This document shows, one piece after another, positions 1-53,009 of a stretch of 64,000 bases of DNA (the first letter of the stretch is position 1; each line of letters begins with the position of its first letter). The stretch comes from Squalus acanthias (taxonomy: Eukaryota), in the NCBI GenBank assembly GCA_030390025.1, contig CM059425.1, positions 68,882,001 through 68,946,000 on the forward strand. Reading direction: 5' to 3'. The notes under the pieces are model-generated. The model was given only the letters and a program-made list of their open reading frames with translations. It was not told where the DNA came from and ran no database searches. Position numbers and translations under genes: made by a program.

Positions 1-1900
1 TAGGCCAATCGGCCCCTCAAGCCTGCTCCACCATTCAATAAGATCATGGTTGATCCAATCTTGGCCTCAACACCACTTTCCCGCTCCCTCCTCATACCCC
101 TTGACTCCCTTGTAGTTCAAATATCTGTCAATCTCCGCCTTGAATATATTCAATGACTCCGCCTCCACAGCTGTCTGGGGTAGAGAATTCCAAAGATTCA
201 CGACCCTCTGAGAGAAGAAATTCCTCCTCATCTCTATCTTAAATGGGCGACCCCTTATTCTGAAACTATGCCCCCTAGTTATAGATACCCCCACGAGGGT
301 AAACATCCTCTCAGCATCCACCCTGTCAATCCCCCTCAGAATCTTATATGTTTCAATAAGAGCCCCTCTCATTCTTCTAAACTCTAATGAGTATAGGCAC
401 AACCTGCTCAACCTTTCATCATACGTCAACCCCTTCATCCCAGGAATCAACCTAGTGAATCTTCTCTGCACTGCCTCCAATGCAAGTATATCCTTCCTTA
501 AATATGGAGACCAAAACTGTACGCAGTACTCCAGGTGTGGTCTCACCAGCGCCCTGTAAAGTTGCATCAAAACTTCCCTACTTTTATACTCCATACCCCT
601 TGCAATAAAGGCCAACATTCCATTAGCCTTCCTAATTACTTGCTGTACCTGCATGCTAACCTTTTGTGTTTCATGTACTAGGACCCCCAGATCCCTTTGT
701 ACCGCAGCATTTTGTAGTCTCACTCCATTTAAATAATAATTTGCTTTTTCATTCTTCCTTCCAAAGTGGATAACCTCACAATTTCCCACATTATACTCCA
801 TCTGCCAATTTTTTGCCCACTCACTTAACCTATCTATATCCCTTGGCAGACTCTTTGGGCTGGATTTTCCAAGCCCCGAGGAGGCGAGTATGGAGGCGGG
901 ACATCCGGTAAAATCAGAGAAAGTGGGGACGGATGGCAAACCCGCCCCCATCCCGCCTCAGTGCCCTTTTGCCAGGAGGCGGGAAGATGTGCAGCTTCGG
1001 GTCCCGTCTCCTGGAGGCGGGAAAGGCATTTAATCCTTTTAACTGCCTGTTAACAGGTAGTTAACAGGCAAAAAAGGATTAGTGCCATTTTACCTTCACA
1101 GGTGAAGGCTTCCCGACCTCAGAAAACCCCTGCCGGGTTGGAGGAGACGTGGAGGAGGTCTGCGCTGGTCGGAGGCACCTGGAAGTAAGGTGTAGAGGTG
1201 AGTGATGGGTGCAAGTCTGGAGTGGTAAGTATGTAAGGTGAGTGATAAGTTTAAAAAAGTGTGCACTTACCTTGTTTTTTTTCTAAAGCCTTTAGCTGGA
1301 TGGTGAGAGCCGATATTCTCCTCGTCAATTTCACATAATGGCTGTTGGATCCTCCAATCTTACAGACATGTGAAATTTACAAAGTAGGAAGGTTTGATGA
1401 GTCCTCACCACAAAGGCTCATCAAACTAAAGAGAATGGCAGTGTTTGACAGCTTCACAGAGCTGTCAAACGCTATCATTTCTTCTTTCAAGAAGTCTTGA
1501 CAGATAGCATGTCTGACGTTGATGTGATCTATCAGTGACTTCCTCCCTAATTGGCCTGCTGAGCCCGCAGGGCGGGCTTAACAAGCGCAATCAGGGGGAA
1601 ATCCCTCTGATTGGTCAGGCGAGGATGGAGGCAGGATATTGACACGACAAGCAGCAGTCCCACCTCCAACTCACCTCCATTCACAAAATCCAGCCCTTTG
1701 TGTCCTCCTCACAACTTGCTAACTTACCTATCTTTGTATCATCAGTAAATTTGGCTACAGTACACTCGGTCCCTTCATCCAAGTCATTAATATAGATTGT
1801 AAATAGTTGAGCCCCCAGCACTGATCCCTGTGGTACCTCACTAGTTATTGATTGCCAACTGGAAAATGATCCATTTATCCTGACTCTCTATTTTCTGTTA
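1..1900 (-). mobile_element. CR1 LINE 3' portion (RT C-terminus and tail), split by a MITE at 857-1696
   Basis: ORF 67..951 has CR1 ORF2 motifs (WQMEYNVGNCEVIHFG, LVRPHLEYCVQFWSP, RRNFFSQRVVNLWNSLP). CR1 sequence resumes at 1697 (FADDTK-type region). Confidence 0.93.
857..1696. mobile_element. Harbinger-type MITE (840 bp)
   Basis: Perfect 12-bp TIRs GGGCTGGATTTT/AAAATCCAGCCC and TSD TTT (854-856, 1697-1699). Removing it restores the CR1 frame (CEEDTKSL). Confidence 0.9.
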
Positions 1901-2179
1901 GTGCCTGTCATTGCCCACAATCCTCAGTTATAGTTGCTGTAGTTAAAGTGCATCTCCCCTTTAAGAGGTGCAGGCTGCTTTCAAATGGCATCAGCAAAGC
2001 ACAATATTGGCCCCCACCCCACTTCATCCATTAGGTGAGCCACCAATGAACATGCAGCCTATTTTATTTAATCGGGTTGAGCAATTTGGGGACTGAGTTG
2101 TGTCCATGTGATAGGGTGCACACTTCGAGTGCGGTGCCCATTCGGCACCATAAAACAGACTTAAACCAATTTCTACCCC
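1900..2179. mobile_element. Harbinger terminal fragment (Myb-gene end)
   Basis: CCCCTTTAAGAGGTGCAGGCTGC...AATTTCTACCCC resembles the 13400-13617 terminus. Confidence 0.5.
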
Positions 2180-4893: not shown

Positions 4894-5989
4894 TTGCTTG
4901 CTACAGGTGAATTGAATAATGTTGAGTGCTGTGAGGGGCTGGCGTTGTGGGTACTACTCAGGCTTGGGGACTTATTCTTTGAGGACATGTATAGAAACAG
5001 AAAAACAGATGTTGAAATAGTGGCTGTAAAGCGCCTCCAAAACAGAGTTTGCAGAGCAAATAATATGAGCTCTGGTGGTTTCCTTTAACGTATGCAGGTG
5101 TGTGTATGTGTGGTGGAAAATTATCCAAAAATCTCCAAATTATTCCAAAAGGAACATCCATTTGCTCATGTTGACAAAGTTAAGCTGCTACTGTCTAAAT
5201 ACTGGAATGTGATTAACTGCAGACTGGGATTCATATCCTGACTATGGTTGCTTGATGTTCATGTCCTCCCAAATTAGCAGGGAAACTGTATTTTTTTCTG
5301 GTGCACTGTCAGCCCTGTTTTATGTTAATCTGATGACTGCTGGCAGTCCTGGATAATGAAATGTTGTTGCAGTACAAAATTTATCTGATGACAGTACTAT
5401 ACTGTATATCATCTGGAAAGCATGAAGCACACTTTACATTTGGTCTTATACCCCAGTTGAACAACAGTGGTGATGCATGCTTACTGAGAATCTTACAGAT
5501 TGCCAAAGCTCAAATGACTGATGCGTACAGATATTGCATGAACTCCACCCTGCTCTCCAGGGCATCATGTGTTCTTAATGGTTGTTCTGTTACACTGAAA
5601 CATTTCAATCCCGGATCTGCATGAAAATCACATTATCTTCAAATTAAATATTCTATTTTGAACAATAATTAGGAAAGTTAAAATATTCAAGTGGTTTGTC
5701 TCAATGGCTTAACGAGATTTTTTTGAGATAACATTGTTATTTGTTATCACTTTGTTTATATGTTCATTTATAAGTTTTTCACAGATCAAGACCCAAACTT
5801 GATCGTTTTTTTAAGTTGATAGTCTCAAAAAATGGGCACAATTTTCCCACTGTTAACAGTAGAATAGAGTTTCCAGCCTCTGGGATTGTTTGCAACTGCT
5901 TGGAATAGGCTCATGAGGGCTGAGAAATCGGGTGGAAATCCATATCAGCAGATGCCCATCTAAATTGTACAGTGCTTAATGTGCAGGCC

Positions 5990-6700
5990 AGCCTGGAGTG
6001 CTCTTGCACATTTTGTACCCTGAACTTTTATGCTTTCGGCTCATTCCAAGCTACTACAGGGGAATCAGCAACACCAGTCAATCTCCAGTGCAAAGAAGCA
6101 TTAAGCAGGTCACTGATGTATTGTCCACCAGGGCAAGTCCTTCATCACTTTCCCCTGAGAAAGCTCGCAGCAACATAAGATGCCATTGCAACTGTTCTAC
6201 ATCAAAATATTATGCAAAGTTCAGGGTGGGGCCCATGTGGCTATCTAGGCCCCTACATCTCCTTGAACTGCAAATGATTTAATTTCATTTATTTCCAGTT
6301 GATTAATGACCTAAACACAAGATTATGTAGGAGAATGCCTGGTTCCCAACCACTGGTCACAGATCCTTAATTTTAAGACTGTGCTTGTTCTATTTGCAAG
6401 AGAAACACGATTGAAAGGATGGCTTCTGTAAGACAAAGGCTATCCTCTTCAGCCCTGGCTCACGACAGCCTTGCAACAGCCAGGAACACTGGCTGAGCAA
6501 AAGTACAAGATGCGTGCAGCCACCAGAATAATTACTGAGTATATTATAGGCATCATGAAGCAACACTTCTGATGCCTGGACAGATCAGGGCTTGCATTAC
6601 CATACAGTCCTTCCAGGTCTCCAGGATTATCGTGGTTTGCTGCATACTGCACAACCATCCAAAGGGGTCCAACCATAAAGCAGGTAGAAGAGGAGGAGGC
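5990..6700 (+). pseudogene. Highly decayed Harbinger transposase remnant
   Basis: Motifs LNFYAFGSFQATTG, SIKQVTDVL, GWLL*DKGYPL and IIGIMKQHF*CLDRSG match the transposase at 47537-48616. Confidence 0.8.
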
Positions 6701-6756
6701 CCAGGCTAACATTCCCTCATTTGTTTGCTAATTTATGCATTTTCACCACAAATTCT

Positions 6757-7371
6757 GGGCCTGAATTTGCGGTCGGAGGCTTCCCGCGGGCAGATGCCTC
6801 CAAACGGTAAAAAATCTACCTGATGGTCCTGGATCCACGGAGACTCGCGCTCCTGGGCCTCTATGCGTAAACCTGCGTAGAGGCCCATGTATCCCGGGGC
6901 GCCTGCTGTTCGCAAGCACCCCATGGATCACGTGGGCCGGCCCAACCAATGAAAGAAGGGGGATCCCCATTCATACTTATGAATCACATAAAAAACACTA
7001 AACAAATTTTTAAAAATTACATATTTAAAATTAATTAAAATACAATATAATTTATATTTTATAATCATTTAAAACAAATTTAATTTTTAAAAAAAACTTT
7101 AAATGTTTTAAAGGGGCTAAAAATAGCCTTACCTTATTTTACAGATGTTTTAATGTTTAAATGATTGAAAAAAAATTATTTTTATATTCATTTAAACTCT
7201 TAAGCTGGTAAAAGCTAGCCTTACCAGGCGTAGGAATTTTACAGGCATTCGCTGGGCAGAATCTCCGCCCGCGGATGCCCTTTTCCCGGGGATGCTTTGC
7301 ACGTGAAAACCCGGAACTTGCGCGGCCCCTATGGGCACATACGCACCTGTAGGGGCCGCAAAATACGGGCC
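6757..7371. mobile_element. Harbinger-type MITE with GC-rich ends and AT-rich core
   Basis: Imperfect TIRs GGGCCTGAATTTGCGG / CCGCAAAATACGGGCC. Same architecture as 21213-21975. TSD not clean. Confidence 0.7.
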
Positions 7372-9285: not shown

Positions 9286-9889
9286 AAAGTGTGTGGGTAA
9301 CTTACCCTCGAATTTTCCCATTCTGCTTGGGAAATTTTATGGGGGTTAATTTGGGCTGCTTAACGCCTGTATTTTAGCTGCTACATGGGCACTTTAAGTT
9401 TCAAAATGAGGTCCAAGATGTGCACGCACACTTCTGATGGGAAGTGCGCAGGGCGCCATCTTGGTATTGGGGCTTGCGCACGCCCACCTCACAACCGCCG
9501 GCAGCATGCAGAGCAGGCAGATCCTGACACGAATCAGAGTACATCGCCGATTTTAAGCTACCACTGCCATTTTGAAACTCCATGCACCAGCCAATGCTGT
9601 CTTAACCTCGTACAGCTGAACATGACGTTAAATGGCATGAAGGACCACCCCGCCAGTACTATATAAAGGGATTATGAAGTATATATAAGTTAGTTGCTTG
9701 ATTATTTCTTCCAGTTGCTGGTGCAATTGTACACACTTTTGGAGGTTTCCTACACTTGGCTAAAGTTTAAATACTCTACAGGGAATGGTCTGGTGGGTCT
9801 TTCAGTCCTTTTGTGTCATTTAAAATATTGTGGTGAAAGAAGTTGCTTCCACACATGGGTGGTCTGGTAGGTCTTCCTCTGGGAATTGA

Positions 9890-19992: not shown

Positions 19993-21212
19993 GACAATGA
20001 GGAGGTGGGGACAGTGGCAGCAGAGGCGGAAAGAAATATCTTTCTTGTAGACTACAATGATGATAACAATGAGCCCGATAATGGGAATAATCAGTGGCAG
20101 GCCACACAGGAGTCCTAAATTAATAAGCAGAACCTCAAGGGTAATAATCTCTGGATTACTACCTGAGCCACGTGCAAATTGGCATATGGTCAAGCAGATC
20201 AGAGAGTTAAATGCGTGGCTCAAAGAGTGTTGTGGGAAGGAGTTTCAATTAATGGGGCACTGGCACCAGTACTGGGGAAAGAGGGAGCTGTTCCGTTGGG
20301 ACGGGCTCCACTTAAACTGGGCTGGGACCAGCGTCCTGGCGAATCAAATAATTAGGGCTGTAGACGGGGCTTTAAACTAAAAAAGGGGGGGGGGAGGGGT
20401 CAGGAGAGGGGAAATTTAGAAATCTAAAGAGAAAGGTCAAGGCAATAGAGCAGTGTAGCGATTTGGGTAAAAATAAGCAGAGTGTGACAGGAAGGGACAG
20501 AGAGTTTAACCGTAGCAGTGCAGCAGAGAATAAGGTCAAAGCAGGGAATAATGGTAAAAAATTTAAATTAAAGGCCCTTTATCTGAATGCACGAAGCATT
20601 CGTAACAAGATAGATGAACTAGTGGCACAAATAGAGATAAATGGGTTTCATCTAATAGCTATTACAGAGATTTGGTTGCAAGGTGACCAAGGTTGGCAAC
20701 TAAATGTTCCAGGGTACTTGACATTTCAAAAAGACAGGCAGAATGGAAAAGGAGGGGGAATAGCCCTGATAATAAAGGATGACATAAGGACAGTAGAGAG
20801 AAAGGATCTCGGCTCGGAAGATCAGGAAGTAGAATCAGTATGGATGGAGTTAAGGAATAACAAGGGGCAGAAAACACTGGTGGGATTAGTATATAGGCCC
20901 CCTATCTGTAGCTATACCGTTGGACAGAATATTAATCAAGAAATAGTAGGAGCTTGTAAAAAAGGTAATGCAATAATCGTGGGGGACATTAATCTTCATA
21001 TAGACTGGACAAATCAAATTGGCAAAGGTAGTCTGGAGGACGAGTTCATGGAATGCATCCGGGACAGTTTCTTAGAACAATACGTCATGGAACCAACCAG
21101 GGAACAGATTATTTTAGATCTTGTATTGTGTAATGAGACAGGGTTAATTAGCAATCTCATAGTAAAAGATCCTCTGGGGCAGAGTGATCATAATATGATA
21201 GAACTTCACATT

Positions 21213-21975
21213 GGCCCAGAAATTCGCCTCTCCGGCTTGCCGCGGGGGTAAGGATCGCGCGCGCTCTTTCCTACCGCGCCTGCCGTTGTGTTTTGGGCCC
21301 ACGGGAACTTCAGCTCCTGGGCCTCTCCCAACTGCCGGCGCGCAGTGCTTGCGTGTCCCAGGGGCGCAGTTAGTGCGATGCGTCCCCTGGGATCACGTGA
21401 GGGCCATGGAGAGCCAATGGCAGCAGACCATCTTTCATTCATAGATTTGACAGGAGACCTGTCAAATCTGTGAATTGAAATCGGCCCCAAAACAACACCT
21501 AAACTTAAAATAATTTTTTTTAAAAACCATCACATTTATAAAATAACTATAGTTAAATAAATTAACTACTTTAAACAAAAATTTAAATTTTTGAAGAAAT
21601 TAAAATACTTTTTAAGTGATAAAAATAAACTTACCTTTCTTTAAAGTATCTAAAAAAGATAACCCTGTTGAAAATTTTTTAAATTATACTTAATTAACCA
21701 CTTACCTTGTTGAAAATGGGTCTTGCGCCTCCTTTTTAATAGTGTAGTTTCTTCGATACTTACCCTCACGTAGAAACTTAAAAAAAAATCTAAGTTTGCT
21801 TCGTGCGCGCAGCCACTACCACGCACGCGGTTCACCTAGGAACCGCCCCCTTCACCATACCGGAAGTTCCGGTTTCCCGCGCATGCGCAGTGCATGCAGG
21901 AAACCGGCACTTCGGGAAGCATTACGGGTGAGTACAGAGCGCGTACTCACCCGGGAAGGGCCAAATTTTCGGCCC
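21213..21975. mobile_element. Harbinger-type MITE (763 bp)
   Basis: TSD ATT (21210-21212, 21976-21978) and imperfect TIRs GGCCCAGAAATT / AATTTTCGGCCC. Excision restores CR1 ELHIKFESD. Confidence 0.9.
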
Positions 21976-22596
21976 ATTAAGTTTGAGAGTGACTTGCCTA
22001 AGTCCGAAAACTAGAGTCTTGGGGGGAAAAATTCGGTTGATTAGCGCCTCCCGTTAGCGCCCTAGAGGGCGCTAATGGGGCGTAAAGCAACTAGCGCCCG
22101 GGTGCGGCGATGTTTGCGCTGCTCGCGAAATTGACCAGACATTTTGTGGCGCGCTAAACACTACCGCCACGATCTCCTGTGCTCACAGATCATGACGTTA
22201 GTCAAGCGTGCAACGCCCCAGTAGTGCCCTGGATTGGATACTGAGTGGTGCCCCCTGCCTTTCCGCCTGTCGCTAGCAACGACAGGTAGAGGGGAATGTT
22301 TTGCAGTCAGGTAGGGACTGGGGGAGCGCTATTTAAAGTCAGCCTCTTCCTGCCTTTTTTTGTCAGCGACATTTTTGCACCACGCATTGAGAGAGAGAGA
22401 GAGAGAGAGAGACTTCTGGAGAGATTCAACGCTGTGTGAAGGAGTTTTGGGTACTGAGCATCATTTTGCAGGTTCTTTTTGATTTGACCTTCATCGCATC
22501 GATTTACAAGAGACTGTGAGAGCTGCACTGATTTGGGGTGTCGTCCTGCACCTGCAGAATCGGAGGCATCAGAGGCGCAGAGAGAGAGTGGCAAAC

Positions 22597-23684
22597 ATGG
22601 CCAGAGGGAGGAGGGCCAACAGGCCTCTGCACAGGAGACCTTACCCTCCCAGGGTATTCCGGGAGCAATTCTCCTACATTCATTTGTCTGAGGAGCAGTG
22701 TTTGCGCAGGCTGCGCTTCAGCAAGGAGGTGGTCACTGAGCTCTGCCACCTGCTGCAACCAGATCTGCAGCCTCAACTGAGGACCAGGGCGTCTCTGTGT
22801 CGGTGGCAGTGAAAATGGCTCTGAATTTTTATGCCACCGGCTCCTTTCAAGCATCTATTGGGGACATCGCCAATATCTCCCAGTTCGCTGTCCATTGCTG
22901 TATCTGGGAGGTGACAAATGCCCTGTATAAAAGGAGATGGCAGTACATCTCTTTCCCCATGACCCGGGCCAAACAGCATGAACGCGCATGTGGCTTTGCT
23001 AGGATAGCAGGCTTCCCCATGGTGCAGGGCGCCATTGACTGCACACATGTGGCATTGCGGGCACCGCATGAAAATGCAGAGATTTTCCGAAACCGCAAGG
23101 GCTACCACTCCTTAAATGTGCAGTTGGTCTGTGACCACAGACAGCTGATACTCGCCGTCAATGCCCGCTATCCTGGCAGCAGCCACGATGCTTTCATCCT
23201 GCGCCAGACTGGTGTGCCAGACCTTTTCCAGGCACCGCATCACCCAAGTGGATGGCTCCTCGGGGACAAGGGTTATCCACTCTGCACCTGGCTGATGACA
23301 CCGCTCCGTAACCCCAACACCCCTGCCAAGCTGTGGTAAAATGAGAGCCATATCGCCACCAGGAACATAATTGAGCAGACTATCGGCGTGCTCAAGCAAC
23401 GGTTCCGCTGTCTGGACCACTCAGGAGGAGCCCTGCAGTACTCTCCTGAGCGAGTCTCCCTCTTCATAGTTGTATGCTGCATGCTTCACAACCTGGCAAT
23501 CCTGAGGACCCAGCCAATGCCACCAGGGATTGGTGCACCACCGGAGGAAGAGGAACAGGAACAGGAGGATGAGGAGGAGGAAGAGGAGGAGGATGATCAG
23601 CAGCGGCACCAAGGTGGGAGGGAGGCCCACAATGTTGCCACTGCAAGGGCCGTCCGTCAACGGCTGATAACAAGCCGCTCCTAG
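22597..23684 (+). pseudogene. Harbinger transposase with a +2 frameshift (~22796) and premature TAA (23337-23339)
   Basis: GAIDCTH, LGDKGY and RNIIEQTIGVLKQRF DDE motifs. Lesions are defined by comparison with 47537-48616. Confidence 0.92.
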
Positions 23685-23980
23685 GCCCCTACTCAGAAGA
23701 TGGCTTCTGGCATGGAGAACAACATCATGGAAAGCAACCCGCACCCCCTATAGCCGGCCAAAGCTGCAATGATTCCAAAGGCCAAAAATGTTAATTTTGA
23801 ATACAACTTTTTTATTTAACAAACTCTGTGTGTGTCATTTATTCAGGACAAACAATTAGAAACAAAGACAACAAATCATGAACTAACAGAACTGGTTCTC
23901 ACAAGCTGGAGAAAAACACCAAAACAGTAAACAAATGTAATCAGACGAACCTCGACCTTTAGTACAAACATTCCCACCAT

Positions 23981-25844
23981 TTATTTAGACCTCCTACTGT
24001 TTGCCCTTTGAGGGTGATCTCCATCCCCTGCGCATTTCCCCCCTTCCCACCCAACTGCTCCTCCATAATGGGCCCCAGTGGCTGCAGCAAGGTTGGTGGA
24101 AGGCTGCTGAATGTCAGATGCTAAGACTACAGATGCCCTTGAAGGACGCCCTCGACCAGCTCTGGGCCTGGAGGCCCCGGCTGCAGACTGCACCAACTCT
24201 GCATGGGCTGGCTGTGTTGCAGGTGGTGGCAAGTGCAATGGGGAAGTGACAGTGGTGGGAGCAGGAATGCTGTCCTCCTGAGAGAGGACAGCACCTTCCT
24301 GCTCGACTGGCACTCCCATGGGGTAGTACCTCAGCATCCAGAGCAATCTGCTCGAGCACAGATTGCTGGCCTGCAGCGGCACCGTGAGAGCCCCGGGGCA
24401 ATGTGGCCGAACCAGCGACAATGGCAGCAGTCACTGCTTGTGTTACATCAATCTGAGACTGCATGAGAGCAGTCTGAGATTGGATGGCAGCAGCCAGTGA
24501 CTGAATTGCAGCACTAAGCCGTTGCGTTGTGTCGGCCTGTGCTGCAGCGGAGTGCTCCACACTCCTTGCCAGTCCATCAATGCTTTCGGGCACCCTTGCC
24601 ATTGCACCCATGAGCTCAGTGTGCATGCTCAAGGCCTGGCTATTCATTTCCACGATGACGCATTCCTCCTCTGCGTCCAGTGCAGCAGGACTCGCTTGCC
24701 TACTCTCCCTCCGGGGAGAATGCCCCTGAGCTTCCCTACCCCCATGGCATTGCTGCAGCCCGCTGGGTCCCGGAGCTTCACCCTCATCAGACCCTTCCCC
24801 CCTGCTCCCCTCCATGGAAGGCGTGGTCCCAGTGTGTGCATGGGCTCCCTCGGGAGACGCAGGCGCTGAGGCTCCGGCTTCCTCTTCCTCCTCGCCTGGG
24901 GTGTCGCTCCCACTGGTTGGTTGAGGGACAGGTTGCTCAGCTGGTGGTTCACTATCTGAAAGCAGGGAGGTACAAGGGTGGCTTTAGCGTCAGGACAGGG
25001 GGGCAGTAAGGGAGTAAGGACTGGAGACATTTAGTAAGTTGGATTGAAAGTGTAAAAGGCTGGTGTTGTGAGGGACAAGTGGAATGAGAGAGGAGAGAAA
25101 GCTGATGAACTTACCATTGCTGTCCCCAAGGGGGTCGATCTCTCCAGCGGCCGCGGCACCTATCACCTGGCTGGCAACGATCCTGTGGACGCGCGCCTCC
25201 AAATCGCTGAGGGTCTGCAGCTGAGCCGGCCTTCCACCCGTCCATTGCTGCTGCCGCCTATTATGAGATAGCTTGGCCTGCAAGAAAAAGGACGGCGTCT
25301 GAGTAAATGTGCAGCCATGGTCTTGCCTGATGTGCCTCCCATAGTTGAATAGCCCTTAATGTATACAGCTATGTGCTTGCCTGATGTGCCTCCCATAGTT
25401 GAATAGCCCTTAATGTATGCAGCCATGTGCTTGCCTGATGTGCATCCCATAGTTCAATAGCACTTAATGTATGGAATGTGCGTGCATGTTTTATGAGATG
25501 GCCATAGGTCTTGGATGAGTGTTGGGCATTTGGGGTTTTTAAACCCTCTGGGCACAGAGTGAGGTTGAGATGGAGGGATGTAGAGGTATTGAAAAGCAGC
25601 CACTCACCCTGACCACCCGAGTGAGGTCGTTGAACTTCTTCCGACATTGTGTGTGGGTCCTGGGCACCATGCTCCTGGAGGAGACGTGCTGAGCCACCTC
25701 CCTCCACATTCTTCTATATTCGCGTGGCACTGGCCTCCTGCCACGCTGTGGGTACAGTATTGATCTTCGGCGCTCCACTGCGCCAACCAGAGCCACCAAA
25801 GCCCAGTCGCTGAAGCGCTGAGCTCGTTCCCTGGGCCTCTCCAT
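23981..25844 (-). pseudogene. Harbinger Myb/SANT-like gene; exons 25844-25608, 25277-25115, 24955-~23981
   Basis: MERPRERAQRFSDWALVALV...WREVAQHV...QCRKKFNDL. Canonical GT-AG introns in phase; frameshift near 24310. Confidence 0.87.
25311..25472. repeat. Tandem repeat, 3 x 54 bp, in intron 1 of the Myb-like gene
   Basis: CTTGCCTGATGTGC recurs at 25322, 25376 and 25430. Confidence 0.9.
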
Positions 25845-28800
25845 AGTTCTTTCCAGCAGAATTGAAGTACAGGTCTGTCCAGGCCGAGATTCAAGGCTGC
25901 AATGACCAGGGTGTGGGTGGAGAGCAAGATTGACCCTCCCCTTTAAGAACTGGCCACGCCAGTGTGTCTGTGTTCCATTGCTAACTGACATCACCTGAGC
26001 TTCGCCAGCGCTCTGAGGTAGCGCCTCGCTTCTCGGCGTTAGTGCCTTAAGAGAGGTGTGTAGCGCCTGATTTAGCGCTCAAATCACCTCTAGGGGCGAT
26101 AGAGGCCAAGTTTGCAGTCGGAGGCGATAATTAGTGCCAGGCGCTAAACTTTGCGCCCAGCCGATAATTGCGTCCCAAACGGGGCGATACCGAATTTCTC
26201 CCCCTTAAACTTAAATAAAGCCAATTACATAGGTATGAGGGGTGAGTTGGCTAAGGTAGATTGAAAAAATAAATTAAAAGGTATGGCGATAGATAAGCCG
26301 TGGCTAGCATTTAAAGAAATATTTCATAATTCTCAACAATAATACATTCCATTGAGAAACAAAAACTCCACAGGAAAAGTGAGCTAACTAAAGAAGTTAA
26401 AGATAGCATTAGATTGAAAGATGAAGCTTATAATGTTGCGAAGAATAGTAGTAAGCCTGAGGATTGGGAGTTTGAGAAACCAGCAAAGGATGACCAAAAA
26501 ATTGATAAAACGGGAAAAAATAGAATATGAGAGAAAACTAGCAAGAAATATAAAAGCAGATTGTAAGAGCTTCTACAAGTATGTAAAAAAGAAGAGAGTA
26601 GCAAAAGTAAACATTGGTCCCTTAGAAGCTGAGACAGGAGAAATTATTATGGGAAATAAGGAAATGGCAGAAACGTTAAACAAATATTTTGTATCTGTCT
26701 TCACAGTAGAAGACACAAAAAGCATACCAAAAATGATGGGTAACCAAGGGTCTAATGAGGGTGAGGAACTTAACTTAATTAATATAAGTAGAGCAAAAGT
26801 ACTAGAGAAACTAAAGGGACTAAATGCCGACAAATCCCCTGGACCTGACGGCCTACATCCTAGGGTTCTAAAAGAGGTGGCTGAAGAGATAGTGGATTCA
26901 TTGGTTTTGATCTTTCAAAATTCCCTAGATTCTAGAACGGTCCCAGTGGATTGGAAGGTCGCAAATGTAACACTGCTATTCAAGAAAGGAGGGAGAGAGA
27001 AAACAGGGAACTACAGGCCAGTTAGCCTGACATCAGTAGTAGGGAAAATGCTGGAATCCAATGTTAAGCAACTGTTATCAGGGCATGTAGAAAATCATAA
27101 CATGATTAGGCAGAGTCAACATGGCTTTATGAAAGGGAAATAGTGTTTGACAAATTTATTAGAGTTTCTTAAGGATGTAACTAGCAGGGTAGATAAAGGG
27201 GAACCAGTGGATGTAGTATATTTGGATTTCCAAAAGGCATTCGATAAGGTGCCACATAAAAGGTTATTACACAAGATTAGGGCTCATGGGGTTGGGGGGT
27301 AATATGGATAGAGGATTGGTTAACAGACAAAAAACAGAGAGTAGGGATAAACAGATCTTTTTCAGGTTGGCAGGCTAGTGGGGTACCGCAAGGATTAGTG
27401 TTGGGGCCTCAGCTATTTACAATCTATATTAATGACCTAGATGAAGGGACCGAGTGTAATGTATCCAAGTTTGCTGATGATACAAAGCTAGGTGGGACAG
27501 TAAGCTGTGAGGAGAACACAAAGTGTCTGCAAAGGGATGTAGATAGACTAAGTGAGTGGGCAGTAAGGTGGCAGATGGAGTATAATATAGGGAAATGTGA
27601 GGTTATTCACTTTGGTAGGAAGAATAGAAAAACAGAATATTTTTTAACTGGTGAGAAACTTTCAAATGTTGGTGTTGAGAGAGATTTGGGTGTCCTCATG
27701 CAAGAAACACAAAGCTAGCATGCAGGTACAGCAAGCAATAAGGAAGGCAAATGGCATGTTGGCCTTTATTGCAAGGGGGTTGGAGTATAAGAGTAAGGAA
27801 GTCTTGCTACAATTGTACAGGGCCTTGATGAGACCACACCTGGAGTACTGTGCACAGTTTTGGTCTCCTTATCTAAGGAAGGATATACTTGCCTTGGAGG
27901 CAGTGCAACGAAGGTTCACTAGATTGATTCCTGGGATGAGAGGGCTGTTCTGATGCAAGATTGTGTAGAATAGGCCTATACTCTCTGGAGTTTAGAAGAA
28001 TGAGAGGTGATCTCATTGAAACATACAATATTCTGAAGGGGATTGACAGGGTAGATGCTGAGAGGTTGTTTCCCCTGGCTGGAGTGTCTAGAACTAGGGG
28101 GCATAGTCTCAGGATAAGGGGTAGGCCATTTAAGACTGAAATGAGGAGGAATTTCTTCATTCAGAGGGTTGTGAATCTGTGGAATTCTCTGCCCCAGAGG
28201 GCTGTGCATGCTGAGTCTTTGAGTATATTCAAGGCTGAGAAAGATAGATTTTTGGACTCTAGGGGAATCAAGGGATATGGAGATCGGGCGGGAAAGTGGA
28301 GTTGAGGTCGATGATCAGCCATGATCTTATTGAATGGCGGAACAGGCTCGAGGGGCCGTATGGCCTACTCCTGCTCCGAGTTCTTATATTCTTATGTTCT
28401 TATGGAGCAAGATCCTGCCCCATGTTCCTCTGCCCTAACCCCGCTTGATATCACCCCTTGTATCACTTGCTTCCTCAGTTCCATGCACCAGCACAGATAT
28501 TTTCGCCTAGGAGTAAGTAGATAGTCTAAGTGGGGTTGTGGCACCAGCTGATTCACGGAGCACAGGGGTACTGGAGGAGTGAAAGTGTAACCATCCCAGT
28601 GGAGGCTATAGAGATGGCTGCCCTTGGCTCGGGAGTCATGGGACTCAGATCTCATGGGTACTCATCTGTGAAAAAGAATGTTTGAGCAACTTCATACCTA
28701 AGTGCAGGCACTGAACTTAGTGTCTGAGGATGTGTGGCAACTGACAGGAGTGACACAGGAGTATGCATCTCTCATTTGCAGCAATATCATGGCAGATCTT

Positions 28801-35640: not shown

Positions 35641-36510
35641 TGATGTGCTGAATCATGTTATTTTATTGCAACTTTATTGAGTTCAAATTTACCGTCAAAC
35701 CCTTTTACTTTATAAGGGATTGTTGCACACAATTACAATTGTTTTTGGTCAGGTGCCAAGTCTGACCCCATCTTTGCTCCAGGACTCCCTGGTCGCTAAG
35801 GATATTTCTGGTAGTTGTTGATTCTTGATAAGCATTATTAATGTTATTCCTTTGCAGTCAGTGAGCTCCAACTTCCATAATTCCCTGTCATCATACCTTC
35901 TAATTCTCTTGTACCATGTCACTATTTCAATAATAAATCAGACATATGACTGTCTGAACAGTCAAATCCATTGAAAATAACACATTTGCAGCAATTTCCA
36001 AGTGTACTACATCACAACGAGAAAGGCAGAACAACTGGAATACTTCAATGACTTGAAAATTAGTCGTGCCTCTGATCACCATAGGTTTTCATAGCACTCT
36101 GCAAAAATGCCAATGTCCTTTAAAACTCTATCCACTAGGAGGAGCTGCAGATTCTTGAATTGTCCCGAAGAATGAGTGCGAGGGAGATTAGTACATACTT
36201 TAAATGACAGCATTCACGGTATTCATACAGTTAAGGGCTGTTCTGTATGAAAGTGATTTCTAATTTGATACCAAACTAACTGCCTATTTTTTTTTAATTT
36301 GTGAGTTTAAATCATGAATGTCTTTATTTTTTAAATTGTTCCAATAATCTTTATAGATTTATTTTTCCTTACCGTCAACCTTTTTGCATTGTCAAGAGTT
36401 CTACAGTATTGTTGAAACAGATAAACTGCGTTTGAATCACAGATTTGCCTGCTGCTATATTTGAACATTCTGGTGAACAATATGAGTTTCTATCCCTGTA
36501 AAGAGACCAT

Positions 36511-36696
36511 GGCCTAGAAATGCGTCTCGGGCGGTGGCGAAAAGCGGGCGGTAGCGGCTCGGCCGCCCGTTACACACCGCGCCTGATCTTCAGTTCCATT
36601 GACTGCAGTGGAACTGAATATCAGACACTGCGTATAACGGTCGGCCGAGCCGATACCGCCCGATGTGCCCCACTGCCCAGGACAAATTTCTAGGCC
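36511..36696. mobile_element. Short Harbinger-type MITE (186 bp)
   Basis: Perfect 11-bp TIR GGCCTAGAAAT/ATTTCTAGGCC, TSD CAT, and an internal hairpin. Confidence 0.88.
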
Positions 36697-37804
36697 CATG
36701 ACATTTAGTTGATTTATTTGATGAATTGTTGCAGCAGGAATCTTGAAACAGCAGTAATAAGCAAGTGTTAGTCAGCAAGTTAGGAGCTAAATCATGGGTC
36801 ACACAGTGAACACGCAAGTGAAACAAAGCGTGAACAATTACACAATCAAAACCTGAGAGCCCAACATTTTAAGGAAGCTGAAATATCCTCGTACTGTTAG
36901 TGGGATGTCAGAAACCCAAACAAGGCCAAATTGGCTAAAGGTTAGTGAAAAAAATCATATGATTGAAATGTCTTATTATCTTGGCTTTGTTGCTCTTGGA
37001 GATTGTCAATTTTGCCTTTCCAGAATATGGTTATATAATTTTAGGATGGCATTACAAAGCAAGCACAACAAAGTAACACTAAACCATTGTTACAGGAACT
37101 GAGAACCAGTTTGGCAATAATTAAAAACAATACAAACTTCTGAAGTAGCTAACAAATGATGCATGGAGCAATCAGCAGAGTTTGTGACAATGGAGACATT
37201 CTCCAAAGGAAACATTCCTAGACCCTTCGACCCTGATATTTACTGGGAGGTGATTAGTGAGCGGAGGCACGCAGGGCGTGGGGGCGGGGGTGGCAGTGGG
37301 GTTGTAGCAGCCAAAAACCTGGTAATATGAGTAATGCGGAGGTCATGCCAAATTTAACTGCAGGACCTCATTTGGATTTTTTTCCTCCACTTCCCAGCTG
37401 GCAGCCAGCCAGATAGAGAGGTTGGCTGTCAGGCGGGAAGGCCCGTGCTGCAAGGCCACAGCCGGAGAGTGGAGTGGAGAGGAGAGAGAGAGGGAGGGAG
37501 AGATGGGGGGGATGTGGGGTAAAGACATCACGGAGGGGGTTGATCGCCGACCGAGGGGGAGATCGCGGGTCAGGGGAAGATGAAAGCAATTTTCAATTTA
37601 CCGTAGACGTTTGCCTTTATTTATGCCTTCTAAAAGTTTGCCTTTATTTATGCCTTCTAACTTGTAAACTAATCGTTTATATGGTACAGTATCAAAAGCC
37701 TTGCTGAAACCTAATCACAGAATTACCATTGTGAACATGGTCTGTCATTTCTTCAAAGAACTCTAGTAAATTTGTTAAGCAAGATCTCCCTCCCATAAAT
37801 CTAT

Positions 37805-44870: not shown

Positions 44871-45472
44871 TCACATGCACATCAAAACAATAGCCTACTG
44901 GTATCCTATGATTCTACTCGATTACAACAGGTAAGGTAATGGGTTAGATTTAAACAGACTTGTACTTCCCTGAGTCAAGCAATGCATGTGGCCTTTTTCC
45001 TTGCTTCTTGGTCTGGTCTGTAGAGGGAGGGCTTCCTGCTTTTCCACGTGGTCATCCAGAGAGAGAGCAAGAGCCTTTGGGTTCCTTGTTTTACATCTTT
45101 TTAAGTCCATTGGGGGAGAAATTCAGTATCGCCCCGTTTGGGGCACAATTATCGGCTGGGCACAAAGATTAGCGCCTGCCGCTAATTATCGCCTCCGACT
45201 GCAAACTTGACTTTTATTGTCCCTGGAGGTGATTGGAGCGCTAAATCAGGCGCTACACATCTGTCTTAAGGCGCAAAGGCCGAGGAGCGAGGCGCTAACT
45301 CAGAGCGCGGGCGCAGCGCAGGTGCTGTCAGTTAGCGATGGAACACAGACACACTGGTGCCGGACAGTTCTTAAAGGGGAGGGTCGATCTTGCGCTCCAG
45401 CCATACCCTGTTCATTGGAGCCTTGAGTCTCGGCCTGGAGAGACCTGTGCCTAAATCTTCCAGCCAAGGACT

Positions 45473-47294
45473 ATGGAGAGGGTGAGAGAACAAGCTCAGC
45501 GCTTCAGCGAGCGGGCCTTGGATGCTCTGGTTGGCGCGGTGGAGCGCAGAAGATCTATACTCTTCCCTGAGAGTGGCAGGAGGCCTTTGCCACGTGAGTA
45601 CAGAAGAGAGTGGAGGGAGGTGGCTCAGAGCGTCTCCTCCAGGAGCATGGTGCCCAGGACCCACATACAATGTCGAAAAAAGTTCAACGACCTCACTCGG
45701 ATCGTCAGGGTGAGTGGCTTTTTTTCAATACCTCTCCATCCCTCCATCTCAACCTCACTCTATGGCCAGAGGGTCTTAAAACCCCAATGCCCAACACTCA
45801 TCCAACACCTATGGCCCTCTCATGAAACACACACGCACATTCCACACTTTGCATACAGTAAGGGCTATTCACCTATGGGAGGCACATCAGGCAAGACCAT
45901 GGCTGTATATTTACTCAGACGCTGTCCTTTTTCTTGCAGGCCAAGCTATCTCATAATAGGAGACAGCAGCAACGGACGGGTGGAGGGCGGCCTCAGCTGC
46001 AACCCCTCAGCGATCTTGAGGCGCCGTCCACAGGATTGTGGCAAGCCGGGTGATCGGTCCCGTCGCCACTGGAGACGCCGACCCCTTTCTGGACAGCAAT
46101 GGTAAGGCCATCACCTTTTTGTCCTCTGTCGTTCCACTTGTCCCTCACACCAGCCTTTGACACTTTCAATCCAACTTACTAAATCGCTGCACTCATTCCT
46201 CCCTTACTGTCCCCCTGTCCTCACGCTAAAGCCACTCTTGTACCTCCCTGTTTTCAGATGGTGATTCACCAGCTGAGGAGACGGGCCCTCAAGCTGCCAG
46301 TGGGAGTGAAGCTGCAGGCGAGGAGGAAGATGAAGGCGGAGCATCAGCGCCACCCTCTCCCGAGGAAGCCCATGCCCACACTGGGAACACGCCTTCCCTG
46401 GAGGGGAGCAGGGGGGAAGGGTCTGATGAGGGTGAAGCTCCAGGACCCAGCGGGCTGCAGCAACGCAATGGGGGTAGGGAAGCTCGGGTGCCTTCTCCCC
46501 GGAGGGAGAGTATGCCAGCGAGTCCTACTGCACTGGACGCAGAGGAGGAGCGGCTGATCGCTGAAATGAACACCCAGACGGTGGACATGCACACTCAGCT
46601 CATGGGTGCAGTGGGAAGGGTGCCCAAATGCATTGAATCACTGACAAGGAGTGTGGAGCACTTCGCTGTAGCACAGGCGGATGCCACGCAAATGTTTAGT
46701 GCTGCAATTCAGTCACTGGCTGCCGTGACCCCATCTCTGACTGCTCCCATGCAGACTCAGATTGAGGCCACGCGAGCACTGACTGCTGCCATCCTCGCTG
46801 GTTCGGACACATTTCCCCGGGGCTCTCACCGCGCCGCAGCAGGCCAGCAATCTGTGCTCCAGCAGATTGCTCCGGATGCTGAAGTGCTGCCCCATGGGAG
46901 TGCCAGTGTGTCGGTCGAGCAGGGAGTTGCTGTCCTCTCTCAAGATGACAGCATTCCTGCTGCTACCACTGTCACTTCTCCACTGCACTTGCCACCGCCT
47001 GTAGGACAGACTGCTGCCGCCCATGCAGAATTGGTGCAGTCTGCAGCCGGGCCCTCCAGGCCCAGAGCAGGTCGAGGCTGTCCTTCAAGGGCATCTGCAG
47101 TCTCAGGTTCTGACAATCAGCAGCCTTCCACCAGCCTTGCTGCAGTCACTGGGGTCCCATTACGGAGGAGCAGAAGGGGGGGAAGTGCGCAAGGGAAGGA
47201 GATCACCCTCGAAGGGCAAAAAGTAGGAGGTGTGACAAAATGTTGGTCATTTTTTTTATTAAAGGCCGAGGTTCGTGGTCAAACTTTTGTTTAG
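45473..47294 (+). pseudogene. Harbinger Myb/SANT-like gene; exons 45473-45709, 45940-46101, 46258-47294; 1-nt deletion in exon 2
   Basis: MERVREQAQRFSERALDALV...WREVAQSV...QCRKKFNDL. GT-AG sites are conserved with copy A; exon 2 is 162 nt versus 163 nt. Confidence 0.87.
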
Positions 47295-47536
47295 TGTTTT
47301 GGACATTATCTCCAGGTTGTGAGAACTAGTTATGTTAATGACTTTTTTTGTGTTTCTTTCTATTAGTTTGTCATGAGGAAATGACACACACAGAGTTTGT
47401 AAAATAAATAAGTTTTTGTATTCAAAATGTACATGTTTGGTCTTTGGAATTATTGCTGCCTTGGCCGGCTTAGGGGTTGCAGGTTGGTTTCATTCATGTT
47501 GTTCTCAATGGCAGAAGCCATTTCCTCAGCAGGGGC

Positions 47537-48616
47537 CTAGAAGCGGCTTGCTATCAGCCGTTGACGGACGGCCCTTCCAGTTTCTACATTGTGGGCCTCC
47601 CTCCCGCCTTGGTGCTGCTGATGATCATCCTCCTCCTCTTCCTCCTCCTCTTCCTCCTCCTCCTCTGGTGGTGCTCCAAGGCCTGGTGGCATTGGCTGGG
47701 TCCTGAGGATTGCCAGGTTATGCAGCATGCAGCACACAACTACGAAGTGGGAAACTCGCTCAGGCGAGTACTGCAGGGCTCCTCCAGAATGGTCCAGACA
47801 GCGGAACCGTTGCTTAAGCACGCCGATTGTGTGCTCAACGATGTTCCTGGTAGCTTGATGGCTCTCGTTGTACCGCAGCTCAGCAGGGGTGTTGGGCGTA
47901 CGGAGCGGTGTCATCAGCCAGGTGCTCAGTGGATATCCCTTGTCCCCGAGAAGCCAACCAACTGGCTGATGCGGTGCCTGGAAAAGTTCTGCCACAGTAG
48001 TCTGGCGCAGGATGAATGCATCGTGGCAGCTGCCAGGATAGTGGGCATTGACAGCGAGTACCAGCTGTCTGTGGTCACAGACCAACTGAACGTTTAAGGA
48101 ATGGAACCCCTTTCTGTTGCGGAAATCCTCGGCATTCTCATGCGGAGCACGCAAAGCCACATGCGTGCAGTCAATGGCGCCCTGCACCATGGGGAAGCCC
48201 GCTATCCTAGCAAAGCCCATTGCGCGTTCTTGCTGCTTGTCTGGGGTCATGGGGAAAGAGATGTACTCTCGTCTCCTTTTAAAGAGGGCATTTGTGACCT
48301 GACGGATGCAGCAATGCACCGCGAACTGGGAGATATTGGCGATGTCCCCAGTAGCTGACTGAAATGAGCCAGTGGCATAAAAGTTCAGAGCTACTGTGAT
48401 CTTCACTGCCACCGACAGAGACGTCCTGGACCTCAGTTGAGGCTGCAGATCTGGCTGCAGCAGGTGGCAGAACTCAGTGACCACCTCCTTGCTGAAGCGC
48501 AGCCTTCGCAAACACTGCTCCTCAGACATGTTAATATATGTGAATTGTTGGCGATATACCCTGGGAGGGTAAGGTCTCCTGTACAGAGGCCTGTTGGCCC
48601 TCTTCCGTCTGGCCAT
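47537..48616 (-). CDS. Intact PIF/Harbinger DDE transposase (359 aa from the first in-frame ATG conserved in copy A)
   Basis: Stop-free ORF with GAIDCTH, NRKGFHSLNVQLVCD, PGSCHDAFIL, LGDKGY, RNIVEHTIGVLKQRF and an acidic tail. Confidence 0.93.
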   Translation of the reverse strand: MARRKRANRPLYRRPYPPRVYRQQFTYINMSEEQCLRRLRFSKEVVTEFCHLLQPDLQPQLRSRTSLSVAVKITVALNFYATGSFQSATGDIANISQFAVHCCIRQVTNALFKRRREYISFPMTPDKQQERAMGFARIAGFPMVQGAIDCTHVALRAPHENAEDFRNRKGFHSLNVQLVCDHRQLVLAVNAHYPGSCHDAFILRQTTVAELFQAPHQPVGWLLGDKGYPLSTWLMTPLRTPNTPAELRYNESHQATRNIVEHTIGVLKQRFRCLDHSGGALQYSPERVSHFVVVCCMLHNLAILRTQPMPPGLGAPPEEEEEEEEEEEEDDHQQHQGGREAHNVETGRAVRQRLIASRF

Positions 48617-50712
48617 GATTGCCACTCTCTCTCTGCGTCTCTGTGTCCTCCGATTCTGGTGGTGCAGGACGACGCCCCCAATCAGTGCAGCCCCCACAGT
48701 CTCTTGGCAATCAAAGTTATGAAGGTCAAAAACCAAAGTACCTGCAAAGTTATGATCAGTAGCCAAAACTACCTCACACAGCGTTGACTCAATGCAGAAG
48801 TCTCTCTTTCTCTCTCTCCGAACGAGTGGTGCAAAAATGTCTACCACAGAGAAAGACAGGAAGAGGCCCCCTTTAAATAGCGCCCCCCCATCCCCACAGC
48901 GACTGGGGAGCGTTCCAGTCTTCCGGTCGTTGGTTGCGCCAGGCGGAAAGGATGGGGGCGCCACTCAATTTCCGCTCCGGGGCGCCACAAGGGCGATGCA
49001 CCCTCGTATGACGTCAAGAACTGCGTGCGCAGGAGATCGCGGCGGTAAAGTTTAGCGCCGCCGCAAAATGTCTAGTTAATTTCGCGAGCGGCGCAAACAT
49101 CGCTGCGCCCGGGCGCCAGTTGCTTTGCGCCCCATTAGCGCCCTCTTAAGGCACTAACGGGAGGCGCAACCAACTGAATTTTCCCCCCATTGTCTCTAGT
49201 CTAAATTGCTGAGACCCCAGGATTGGGTCTTAGTTTCATGGCTGTTCTTGATTGACTTTCCTTTGAACATGTGTCTGTCTGCAGTGGCTGGTGCCATTTC
49301 TTGATGAAGTTAGTTGTTTGTTAACACCTTTTAATGGCTCTTGAGTTTCGATGGTGAGTTTCGATGGGTTTTCGATGGGGGTTATCCTGTTATGCAGGTT
49401 TCCTTTGTTGAGTTTCGCTGGGAGATCCATACACATCAAGTTCATCTTTATTACATACATCTTATATTAATAGTCTCGAGTCCATCACTCATCATAAACA
49501 TATATTTTTATTCTTACAAACCCTACGACTGCCCTCCGACATAATTGGCCACATAAGATGTCGGAGGAGGAGGATTCTCTGCCCTACAAGGCTGACAGGA
49601 AATTCCCAGAAATTGCGGTAACCTGTGGCCTATTAAATGAGGCAACCACCAAACAGCAAGAACAGTGTCCACACAAGGTACCTGTCTGCTGTATGCTCAC
49701 AAACTCTCAGGAAGTGGCTGCTGGTCTGGGCACTTGGGTGACAGAGTGAATGAATGATTAAGTAAGGAGGTAAAGAATGAGAGTTCAAGGGATGATGCAG
49801 CAGCAGCAGACCAGGCATTTTAGGCAGACACACATCTTCTCTCATGTTACTTTTTCCAACATATGTCCATTTTTTAAATCTGTTTGCAGGAGAAGATGAC
49901 CCATAACAGGCAGCAGCCATGCATGCAGCTAACTTGCAACCCTTCACTCCTTATAAGGGGAGGGCCCTGGAGATCCTGGGTATAGAGGCAATGGGTGAGG
50001 TTGAAGGCCTCTCCCCAGTTTATAACTGGCATCATCCCTTGATTTCTCATACTTTACCTCCTTACGTAATCATCCATTCACTCTGTCATACATAGGCATA
50101 CACTGCAGCACTGAGGTATAGCATACTAGAATATGTTGCCATGTAAGCTCTTTCTCAAGGAGTGTCACAGCAAACATTGTAAAATCTGTTGTGCTTCTGC
50201 TCCCGTAGGTTCCTAAGAGGAAGAGGTGTCAGAGCCCAATGCTGAGCCTTAACGGAGTGTCTCACAGCACCCTGTACCATCCCCTCCTACAGTGGCAAAC
50301 ACACACATTCATTCTGTGGGGGTCAGTTGCTACATTGCAGGAGGAAGCATTTGGTGAAACACAGAACACGAGTGAAGAGGAGCAATTACATATGCAATTG
50401 GAGGGTCAAGAGCTCCTTCAGTTACTGGACCTAACAGGACGTGCCTACTGACACAGTTTGGTCATTTTAGTCTGCGCTTATGAGTTTGGGATACCTATGG
50501 AGGAGTCCGCACCCCACAATTGTGTAATGCTGCATGACCACCGGACCAAGCTGCAGACCACCTTTGAAAGCATAGCCTCTTCAAAGCCCTTGGCTGAGGT
50601 TCAAAGCTCAAATTTGGCTTCTTTAATAAGTACTTTGACTGGCACACTCGAGACCCTAAGTTCCATTTTGCAATCATTTGTTTTTTCTGCATTCAATATA
50701 TTAACAAACCAG

Positions 50713-51454
50713 GGGGGGAAGAATTCGGTTGCTTTGCGCCTTCTGTTAGCGCCCTCTTAGGGCGCTAATGAGGCGCAAAGCAACTAGCGCCAGGGCGCGG
50801 TGCCGCCAACGCCTCCTGCAAAATTCAGCGGGCGGTTAGCGGTGGCGGTAACCATTAGCGCCCGCAGCGCTGTGCCGTCGGCGATGACATCATCGCCATG
50901 CACAGCGCCCCTCTCACGCCCCGGCCGCGATCTTTGGTAGTGTCCCCTGACTTACTGCCGGACGCTATGTCCAACGGGGTCAGGGGGGCCTACCTGCGGC
51001 CGGGGCGGCGCTAATTAAAGGCGAGGTGCCGGGCAGCCATTTTTGTTGCTGGCCGCCTGCCAGCACCTGCCCCCGTTGCCTTCCCCGGCCCCCGTGAAGC
51101 CCCCCCGTGGGGTGCCGGCTGCGCTCCGTGAGCCCGGCACTTCTCTTGAGTGCCGGGCTCTTTTGCCGGCACTCCGATCCCTGGTGGCCCTGCTGGGCCC
51201 CGGATCGCGCTGCGCAAGGCCCCTCCCCTTTAAGAAGGGGAGGAAGGACTGCAGTACCGCGGCGCGACATGCCGCAGCGCCATTCCCTCGCAGCGCCCCA
51301 AGAGGGAGGCGGGGTGCTTCCAGTAGTGCCCCGCTTATCTCTTGGGGCGCTACTAATGAATTTCGGCCACGGGGGCGCGAATTTTTTCGGGGCTCTAAAA
51401 GTAGCGTCCCAGCGAAGTTAGCACCCAAAGGGGGCGCGACTCAATTTTTCCCCC
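50713..51454. mobile_element. Non-autonomous Harbinger derivative (MITE) related to copies A and B
   Basis: First ~100 bp match 22022-22130. TIRs GGGGGGAAGAATTCGG / CTCAATTTTTCCCCC; probable TSD CAG. Confidence 0.85.
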
Positions 51455-53009
51455 CAGGGCTTTCGTAACCTCACTGGGGCTAGCCCCTTATTTAAATTAA
51501 AACTGGATCCTTAATAAGCCTAACCCAAGGGGATATTTTCTGCTACTGAGCTCCTAGAAGGAAATTGCAAGCTCCCAGCCCGTCATTTTCTGACCAGTAA
51601 AATTAATGGATGGAAAATCACAAGCTGGAGGTGTGCGTCCAGTGTATGTCAGAAGTGCCAAAGTGGAAAATTTCCTCTGTAATTAAACAAAAAAGGAACC
51701 ATATCTGGCCCAACAACTATCACCCTGCAAGGGGTTTCATTTACTGTGTGCACTATGGGTTAATGTTAGCATTAAAATAGTGCAGACAGGAATATAACTT
51801 TAAAAAGAAAACTTGCATTTATATTAGCGTCTTTCACAACCTCAGGATGTCCCAAAGCGCTTTATAGCCAATGAAGTACAATGAATGCAATAACCAGTGC
51901 ACTAAAAATTGTACATATAGGGAATTAAATCTCTTGAAATGCAGATTCACTCATTTGAAAAAATTAAATAAAAAATATAATTGTATCCTCTTATTGTGGA
52001 AAACTGAAATATTATTTTGTCATGGTATGCAGTATTAGCAGTAAAATTAAGATATATGACAGCAAGTTAATTTTATGATGCCACCCCTTTATCAAATTCC
52101 TGTTAATATTTCAAGCAATACCACTCACTCTCCCATCAATAAAGATAGCTTCAAATATAAATAGAACGCAATCTTTATGGCTTAAAACCTATGAGCAACT
52201 CTGTATTCATCCAGTCAATAAGCCAGTGCTGAACCTAAATTGACAGTAGATAATTTAGTAGGCAGCTTAATGACTTCACAGCAATGCTGTAGTGAGAATG
52301 CTGGCCATTGCCACTATATACAATTCACTTAATACACATCTTGCATAGCAAAATGAAAGGTCTTTCACCAGTAAATTTTAATGTAATTAACTAATGAAGC
52401 TTCAATAAATACAGATAAAAGTTTATTTGGCTTTGTTCACATGAACAATGAAAGCCAAATAATGGGACTGATACTACAGACCTGCAAAATGTTGTCCATG
52501 ACGTTCTGGTCATGATACTGAGCTACTTAGATCATGAAGGTCTATATAGGTAAGTCCAGAACTGACAATTCCTGTCCTTTTCCTCAGAATTTAGCCGATA
52601 CCATTGCCAACACTTTATTGTGCATGAAGCTGATCCTCATCTGTCAGTATATAGCCATTTAAATGGTTTGTGTGTAGACAGTGTATAGCTGATGAAGTCT
52701 CTGTCAGTTCTGGGCTTACTAGTAAAGAAAGAAGGAGGATTCTTTCTTTTAAACAATTGTTGGCAAAATGAACATTAATATTCAGGCAAGATTTCTGAAT
52801 TTTTTGGGAGTTTGATTGAGTGGACAGACAAGTGTTCAACTGGAAACCTCATCTGTCCAAAGTGCGAGAGAAATTCAGCTGTGGCACATGTGGCAGTCTC
52901 GTGAGGTCCTGGGGATCAATCAGGTGTGGATGTATTGATGCACCAATCAGTACATTGGTGCAGTCAAGCCATAGACTATGTGACTTGCACTTCTTGTTGG
53001 AAAAGAGAC

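Follow-up and report, generated by a model that had tools for sequence, protein, structure and literature searches.

The 64-kb window analysed here (contig CM059425.1 of the 3.7-Gb Squalus acanthias assembly; coordinates are positions in this window) contains six insertions, E1 to E6, which are PIF/Harbinger elements and their MITEs (miniature transposable elements with inverted repeats), lying at a shared 15-bp palindromic target. A sequence-only reading of the window had placed six insertions with paired terminal inverted repeats (TIRs) here, and all were present at the starts it gave. E3 and E5 are of autonomous type. E3 (4183 bp, 22022-26204, + strand; 22013..26213 with target flanks) carries a broken transposase gene (22597-23678, +) and a Myb/SANT exon (25599-25844, -), and its target-site duplication (TSD) reads TTG on the left and TTA on the right. 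E5 (4077 bp, 45112-49188, - strand; 45103..49197 with flanks) has the TSD ATT/ATT, an open 359-amino-acid DDE_Tnp_4 transposase open reading frame (ORF; 47540-48616, -) and a Myb_DNA-bind_5 exon (45473-45718, +). The two genes are convergent in both elements, and the domains were recognised in E5 (PF13359, E 6.8e-41; PF13873, E 1.4e-08) and likewise in E3.

The other four insertions, without assigned strand, are MITEs: E1 (840 bp, 857-1696; 848..1705 with flanks; TSD TTT/TTT), with paired TIRs and 29 held-out full-length relatives at 93-95% identity in the own-genome search; E2 (763 bp, 21213-21975; 21204..21984 with flanks; ATT/ATT), from a family with an A-N-T core; E4 (186 bp, 36511-36696; 36502..36705 with flanks; CAT/CAT), a fold-back MITE; and E6 (742 bp, 50713-51454; 50704..51463 with flanks; CAG/CAG), with ends of the E3/E5 type. 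The 3-bp duplication was clean in four of the six, the exceptions being E3 and E6; an additional G in the G-run on the left of E6 gives the 1-bp end ambiguity noted earlier. A 13-nt TIR profile across six families showed that the TIRs are short, begin with G and are common to the MITEs, starting with GGG in E1, E3, E5 and E6; in E2, E4 and the additional family F7 (see below) one end or both start with GGC. E3 and E5 were 83% identical from end to end. The six insertions are independent events, as the sequence-only reading had it, drawn from about three TIR lineages and not from six unrelated families. For the transposase of E5, the relatives with the best scores were shark and ray proteins (up to 69% identity).

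Six own-genome searches yielded 179 loci, six of them the window's own, leaving 173 held-out rows with both ends in 162; each search retained the best 29-30 of 36-40 scored loci, from 647-28,707 candidates. Identity between the two flanks was concentrated at a length of 3 bp (97 of the 162 copies, vs. 17 at 2 bp and 0-1 at 4-7 bp), and another 33 held-out copies had a single TSD mismatch. A 3-bp TSD, the PIF/Harbinger trait, is thus present. Sites with no more than a single TSD mismatch, 130 in all, were grouped into 102 clusters by flank homology, and one site from each was used for the sequence logo.

The consensus of these 102 sites was A-R-A-S-A-Y | H-W-D | R-T-S-T-Y-T, where background base frequencies were 20-29%. 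In the left half, A predominated at -6 (56/102, 55%), -5 (53%, with G at 29%), -4 (76/102) and -2 (68/102, 67%), with G or C at -3 (35% and 26%) and C or T at -1 (50/102 or 49%, and 36%). The right half mirrored the left: G or A at +1 (50/102 or 49%, and 42%), T at +2 (60%), +4 (75/102), +5 (45%, with C at 35%) and +6 (56%). The sequence-only reading would have been refuted by a logo without information beyond the 3-bp TSD, but each of the 12 flank positions was informative (p 5.5e-3 to 5.8e-22). The information stopped there (p >= 0.03 at +/-7 to +/-12), and the centre base was A or T in 78 of 87 held-out sites. The window tallies made before (C at -1 in 6/6, A/T at the centre in 6/6, G at +1 in 4/6, T at +4 in 5/6, A at -6 in 5/6) were reproduced on recounting; a constant C at -1, as seen in the window, did not extend to the genome, where C was found in only 50 of 102 sites and the position is C or T. 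The proposed likeness to the zebrafish element Harbinger3_DR, whose 15-bp target consensus AAACAC-CWG-GTCTTT is printed in PMC3016246, held: the sites matched its flanks at 6.85 of 12 positions, vs. 3.47 in 20,000 A/T-centred background positions (p 9e-52).

Total information amounted to 5.6 bits in 75 perfect sites. In these, the pairs at -1/+1 were CG 16, TG 15, CA 15 and TA 11 times, so that the halves look uncoupled, as expected of two independent half-site readers. When 69 held-out singletons supplied the scoring matrix and 100,000 random 15-mers the comparison, the sites of E1 to E6 ranked in the top 0.007%, 1.3%, 0.07%, 0.04%, 0.16% and 0.4%, respectively. Each tested family showed the frame separately, in keeping with the earlier proposal of extended recognition across TIR families: the E1 to E6 families taken singly had 2.98-4.19 of 6 half-site matches, vs. 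a background of about 1.75. An independent set, obtained by pairing TIRs de novo in stretches spaced evenly along the genome (600 kb in all), gave 4.0 of 6 per half-site for 12 pairs with perfect TSD and 3.7 for 18 hand-picked pairs (background about 1.76).

The 18 paired elements were spread unevenly, 16 in 200 kb (C1-C2, L180-L199) and 2 in 400 kb (C3-C12, L200-L239), which may reflect regional clustering.

The reconstructed empty sites were compared with all genomic DNA gathered for the analysis. The E1 site had 25 spanning paralogues, 23 of them gap-free, and those of the E2 site were gap-free in 10 of 10 cases. For E3, six spanning paralogues had gaps only just beyond the 15-mer; since TTA was present in three of them (CTG in the other three), TTA was likely the original TSD. 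The E3 site reconstructed earlier with TTA thus stands as the probable original and agrees with the right copy, though not with the left one, which reads TTG. In the DNA compared, neither E4 nor E6 had a spanning empty paralogue. Among the 97 held-out sites with perfect TSD, 46 had a spanning paralogue, mostly gap-free in 39.

For E5 there was one unoccupied match (100% over 87 nt, 42190-42276), within a twin of the long terminal repeat (LTR) that E5 occupies. The occupied LTR lies at 44874-45111 and 49189-49518, with E5 in between, and the empty twin at 41997-42544 (no strand given) holds an exact match to the reconstructed target at 42226-42240, so that the boundaries of E5 and its 3-bp duplication are fixed directly. 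The LTR element as a whole (41997-49518) has an rve integrase ORF (43170-43841, -) and an internal part of only about 2.3 kb; its LTRs are about 98% identical except for one indel region, and E5 arrived after this element had landed.

Within the palindrome, the three central bases differed among lineages. The 97 perfect TSDs comprised 4 CWG, 11 TWA, 14 TNA and 76 HWD. A-N-T was found in 15 of 21 sites of the E2 family vs. 5 of 76 among the remaining families (p 3.8e-9; after deduplication, 11/17 vs. 4/58) and in 26 of 35 sites of the F9 family (left ends), and T1 and T3 of the core were the most heterogeneous positions over 12 end clusters (permutation p 0.0005), in which -6, -3, -2 and T2 were homogeneous (p 0.18-0.75). 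One 21-member "end" cluster with invariant flanks was in fact an internal transposase segment and was left out of this test. The E1, E3/E5/E6 and E4 lineages have a loose, A/T-rich core (HWD), and the E2/F9 lineage has A-N-T; the relaxed TSD proposed by the sequence-only reading is therefore right for most lineages and wrong as a uniform rule. Decay from an original CWG was ruled out as the source of these TSDs, as both copies were identical and non-CWG in 93 of the 97, also in young families.

Three additional autonomous families extended the comparison. F7, with a transposase 52-57% identical to that of E5, had a frame score of 3.76 of 6 (n=25 left ends from 30 loci) and a perfect TSD in 9 of 14 paired copies. 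F8, an older element at about 9.7-13.5 kb of the window with a transposase 53% identical to that of E5, scored 3.71 of 6 (17 ends from 30 loci). F9, with a transposase 48% identical to that of E5 and a Myb domain about 44% identical, scored 3.4 of 6 (n=35, deduplicated). The frame is thus held across lineages whose transposases are 48-57% identical. The ends of E2 resemble those of F9 (71% and 79%).

F9 is a very young family, represented by 40 copies at 99-100% identity over 877 bp, among them L330:564-4333 (G000:C7:119660963-119664732). At least one copy carries an open 383-amino-acid transposase ORF and a Myb exon (PF13873, E 3.5e-14), the DDE transposase and Myb pair being complete. Four further whole copies shared a deletion in the transposase gene (three of the four) or had a split ORF (the fourth). 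Because of this deletion, right ends were found at the assumed distance in only 6 of 39 copies; left ends were called in 38 of 39, and the F9 counts rest on them. F9 is, by its sequence, a candidate for current activity.

Harbinger3_DR corresponds to NuwaI-2_DRer (Han et al. 2015, PMC4482050 Table S5), in a scheme whose groups are defined by TSD. The shark elements share with it the 15-bp palindrome, the two agreeing in the commonest base at each of the 12 flank positions (S at +/-3 in the shark), the 3-bp TSD, a length of about 4.2 kb and the DDE_Tnp_4 and Myb_DNA-bind_5 domains; in the DDE blocks printed in Fig. S3 of PMC4482050, 50 of 92 residues of E5 and NuwaI-2_DRer were identical by eye. 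In NuwaI the TIR usually begins with GGG (PMC4482050), which applies to E1, E3, E5 and E6, whereas GGC occurs in E2, E4 and F7 as given above. The shark elements differ from Harbinger3_DR in that the CWG characteristic of NuwaI was present in only 4 of 97 TSDs, that Y/R takes the place of C/G at -1/+1, that either A or G stands at -5, and that one shark lineage has A-N-T. The shark core appears relaxed relative to that of zebrafish in a comparison made with published zebrafish consensus strings.

Other groups were likewise similar in part. Plant PIF and Ping/mPing also show a preference beyond the 3-bp TSD, a two-protein system and Tourist-like MITEs, but their preference spans 9 bp centred on TTA/TAA (PMC2836001), whereas that of the shark elements spans 15 bp and only 11 of 97 TSDs are TWA; the same count departs from the TWA of PIF/Harbinger as Han et al. 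(2015, PMC4482050) delimit it in the narrow sense. As in NuwaII (C|TNA|G, PMC4482050 Table S7), C is favoured at -1 and G at +1, and 46 of 92 DDE-block residues of E5 were identical by eye to NuwaII-4_XTro (PMC4482050); TNA, however, was found in only 14 of 97 TSDs and C at -1 in 50 of 102, and the NuwaII tables of PMC4482050 contain mostly Myb_DNA-bind_4. The A-N-T of the E2/F9 lineage (the 15/21 and 26/35 given above) recalls Pangu, which has an ANT TSD (PMC4482050), but F9 encodes a Myb/SANT protein where the second ORF of Pangu is described as without known motif, and the F9 transposase is 48% identical to that of E5 whereas Pangu forms a separate clade (PMC4482050). The shark elements are thus PIF/Harbinger in the broad sense (two genes, G-initial TIRs, 3-bp TSD, extended preference) and work like Harbinger3_DR, but they fall outside the TSD definitions of narrow PIF/Harbinger, NuwaI and NuwaII, and the A-N-T lineage outside the ORF definition of Pangu. 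There is about an even chance that target choice is modular, with an outer frame of 6+6 bp that is conserved between cartilaginous fish and zebrafish and a core that switches between CWG, A-N-T and loose A/T-rich forms within one transposase lineage. If so, the TSD type that defines Pangu, NuwaI and NuwaII would be a labile trait and not a clade marker.

The symmetric 15-bp preference, its limit at +/-6, the 3-bp duplication, the common frame and the lineage-specific core were observed directly. Insertion takes place in the middle of a degenerate palindrome of 15 bp, and we consider it likely that it proceeds through a two-fold symmetric transposase complex, which would read each 6-bp half-site and cut with a 3-bp stagger. 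The transposase, rather than its Myb partner, would be the main target reader, through contacts to some of the bases (the A at -6, -4 and -2) and bendability at the pyrimidine beside the cut; the frame would have been inherited from a common ancestor with Harbinger3_DR, the core drifting faster. Several points weigh against this proposal. The copies, chosen from the candidates with the best scores, stem from old insertions in the genome, not from de novo events, and 65 of the 162 lacked a perfect TSD. The frame was heterogeneous among families at -5, -4 and -1 (permutation p 0.001, 0.003 and 0.03). Links from MITEs to autonomous elements depend on weak end similarity (the E2-F9 values above, and 68%, E 0.002, for E1-F7), and no autonomous partner of E4 was found by end similarity among the families compared. 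Sequence comparison gave no solved structural relative (best E 0.14), and the similar divergence of the Myb domains (about 44%) and the transposases (48%) means that conservation cannot separate the two as readers.

The motif and the 3-bp cut might also be as described with the flanks being read by the Myb/SANT partner or by a Myb-transposase interface, which we regard as unlikely. Myb is the only recognisable DNA-binding domain in the elements, but the subterminal sequences differ strongly among families with the common frame, and in other DDE transposases it is the catalytic dimer that captures the target. According to PMC2836001, where vertebrate and plant preferences of 15 and 9 bp are described, the element proteins carry the insertion preference across hosts, which fits the main proposal, and one or both of them set it; the reported binding place of Myb is, however, the TIRs or element ends (PMC2836001, PMC9179366). 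Somewhat less probable still is a pure preference for DNA shape, with bendable A/T-rich sequence and flexible steps as the target and the zebrafish likeness a convergence on deformable DNA. Every position carried at most 0.7 bit and two of the three steps seen most often across the cut were T-A and C-A (37/150 and 22/150), but C-T steps were likewise common (32/150), A was preferred over T in a strand-specific manner at -4 (75% vs. 16%) and -6, G/C was enriched at +/-3 and the preference stopped sharply at +/-6.

It is highly improbable that the logo arose because a small number of abundant repeats were hit over and over, or from mis-called ends, although 36 of the 130 sites had flank homology to another, 18 of them in one cluster, and 8 of 130 lay at CR1-type 3' tails. 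The logo was identical in the 94 singleton sites alone, which ruled out a repeat-driven artefact, and under a singleton-only matrix 26 of the 28 sites from repeat clusters ranked in the top 5%; mis-called ends were ruled out by the natural empty paralogues, including the exact empty twin of E5.

The same nucleotide of a paralogous repeat was struck in six site pairs (135 sites), four in opposite orientation and three between different families; E1 and L041, a pair of the same family and orientation, could be a duplication. Sites just past a CR1-type 3' marker accounted for 8 of 130 (L003, L005, L124, L130, L133, L136, L141 and L144), vs. 0.18% of background positions (p 1e-10), and all eight marker-positive sites belonged to the E5/E6 lineage. 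The CR1 label comes from translations and similarity to a reverse transcriptase ORF in the window, not from a family scan. The microsatellite of the CR1 tail can itself score in the top 0.06%, and landings there recur. E2 and E3 were inserted 43 bp apart within one copy of a CR1-like long interspersed nuclear element (21213-26204).

Extended target recognition has already been described for the superfamily (PMC2836001, PMC3016246) and is not new; the present analysis adds the lineage-specific core on a common frame, the CR1-tail hot spot and the young family pair F9/E5. No published title on shark Harbinger targets or on a Harbinger target complex was found, in a search that did not extend to subscription journals and Repbase, and PMC9179366 reports Harbingers as not found in elephant shark, other cartilaginous fish being untested there. 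The target rule of one zebrafish element now extends to several cartilaginous-fish lineages, and explains recurrent landings in CR1 tails and similar host repeats. PHIS elements can be misclassified when only their TSD strings are considered. With an open ORF in each, F9 (near-identical copies, A-N-T core) and E5 (loose core) are a natural pair in which to map the protein and residues that set frame and core, and the family-dependent core likely allows the question left open in PMC2836001, which element protein picks the site, to be tested. A preference of about 5.6 bits is far too loose for site-specific engineering.

Further features were seen in the window. The older remnant F8 (about 9700-13500) has a Myb exon at 13106-13273 (-). 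A second older Harbinger remnant, at 6020-6704, encodes a transposase 33% identical to that of E5, and the old fragment 5900-6761 used as a query gave only partial matches (65-84%). A near-perfect 48-bp hairpin (98% complementary, 2-nt loop) lies at 18875-18972, and a 60-bp inverted repeat (92%) surrounds 230 bp at 49739-50088, possibly a MITE of another superfamily.

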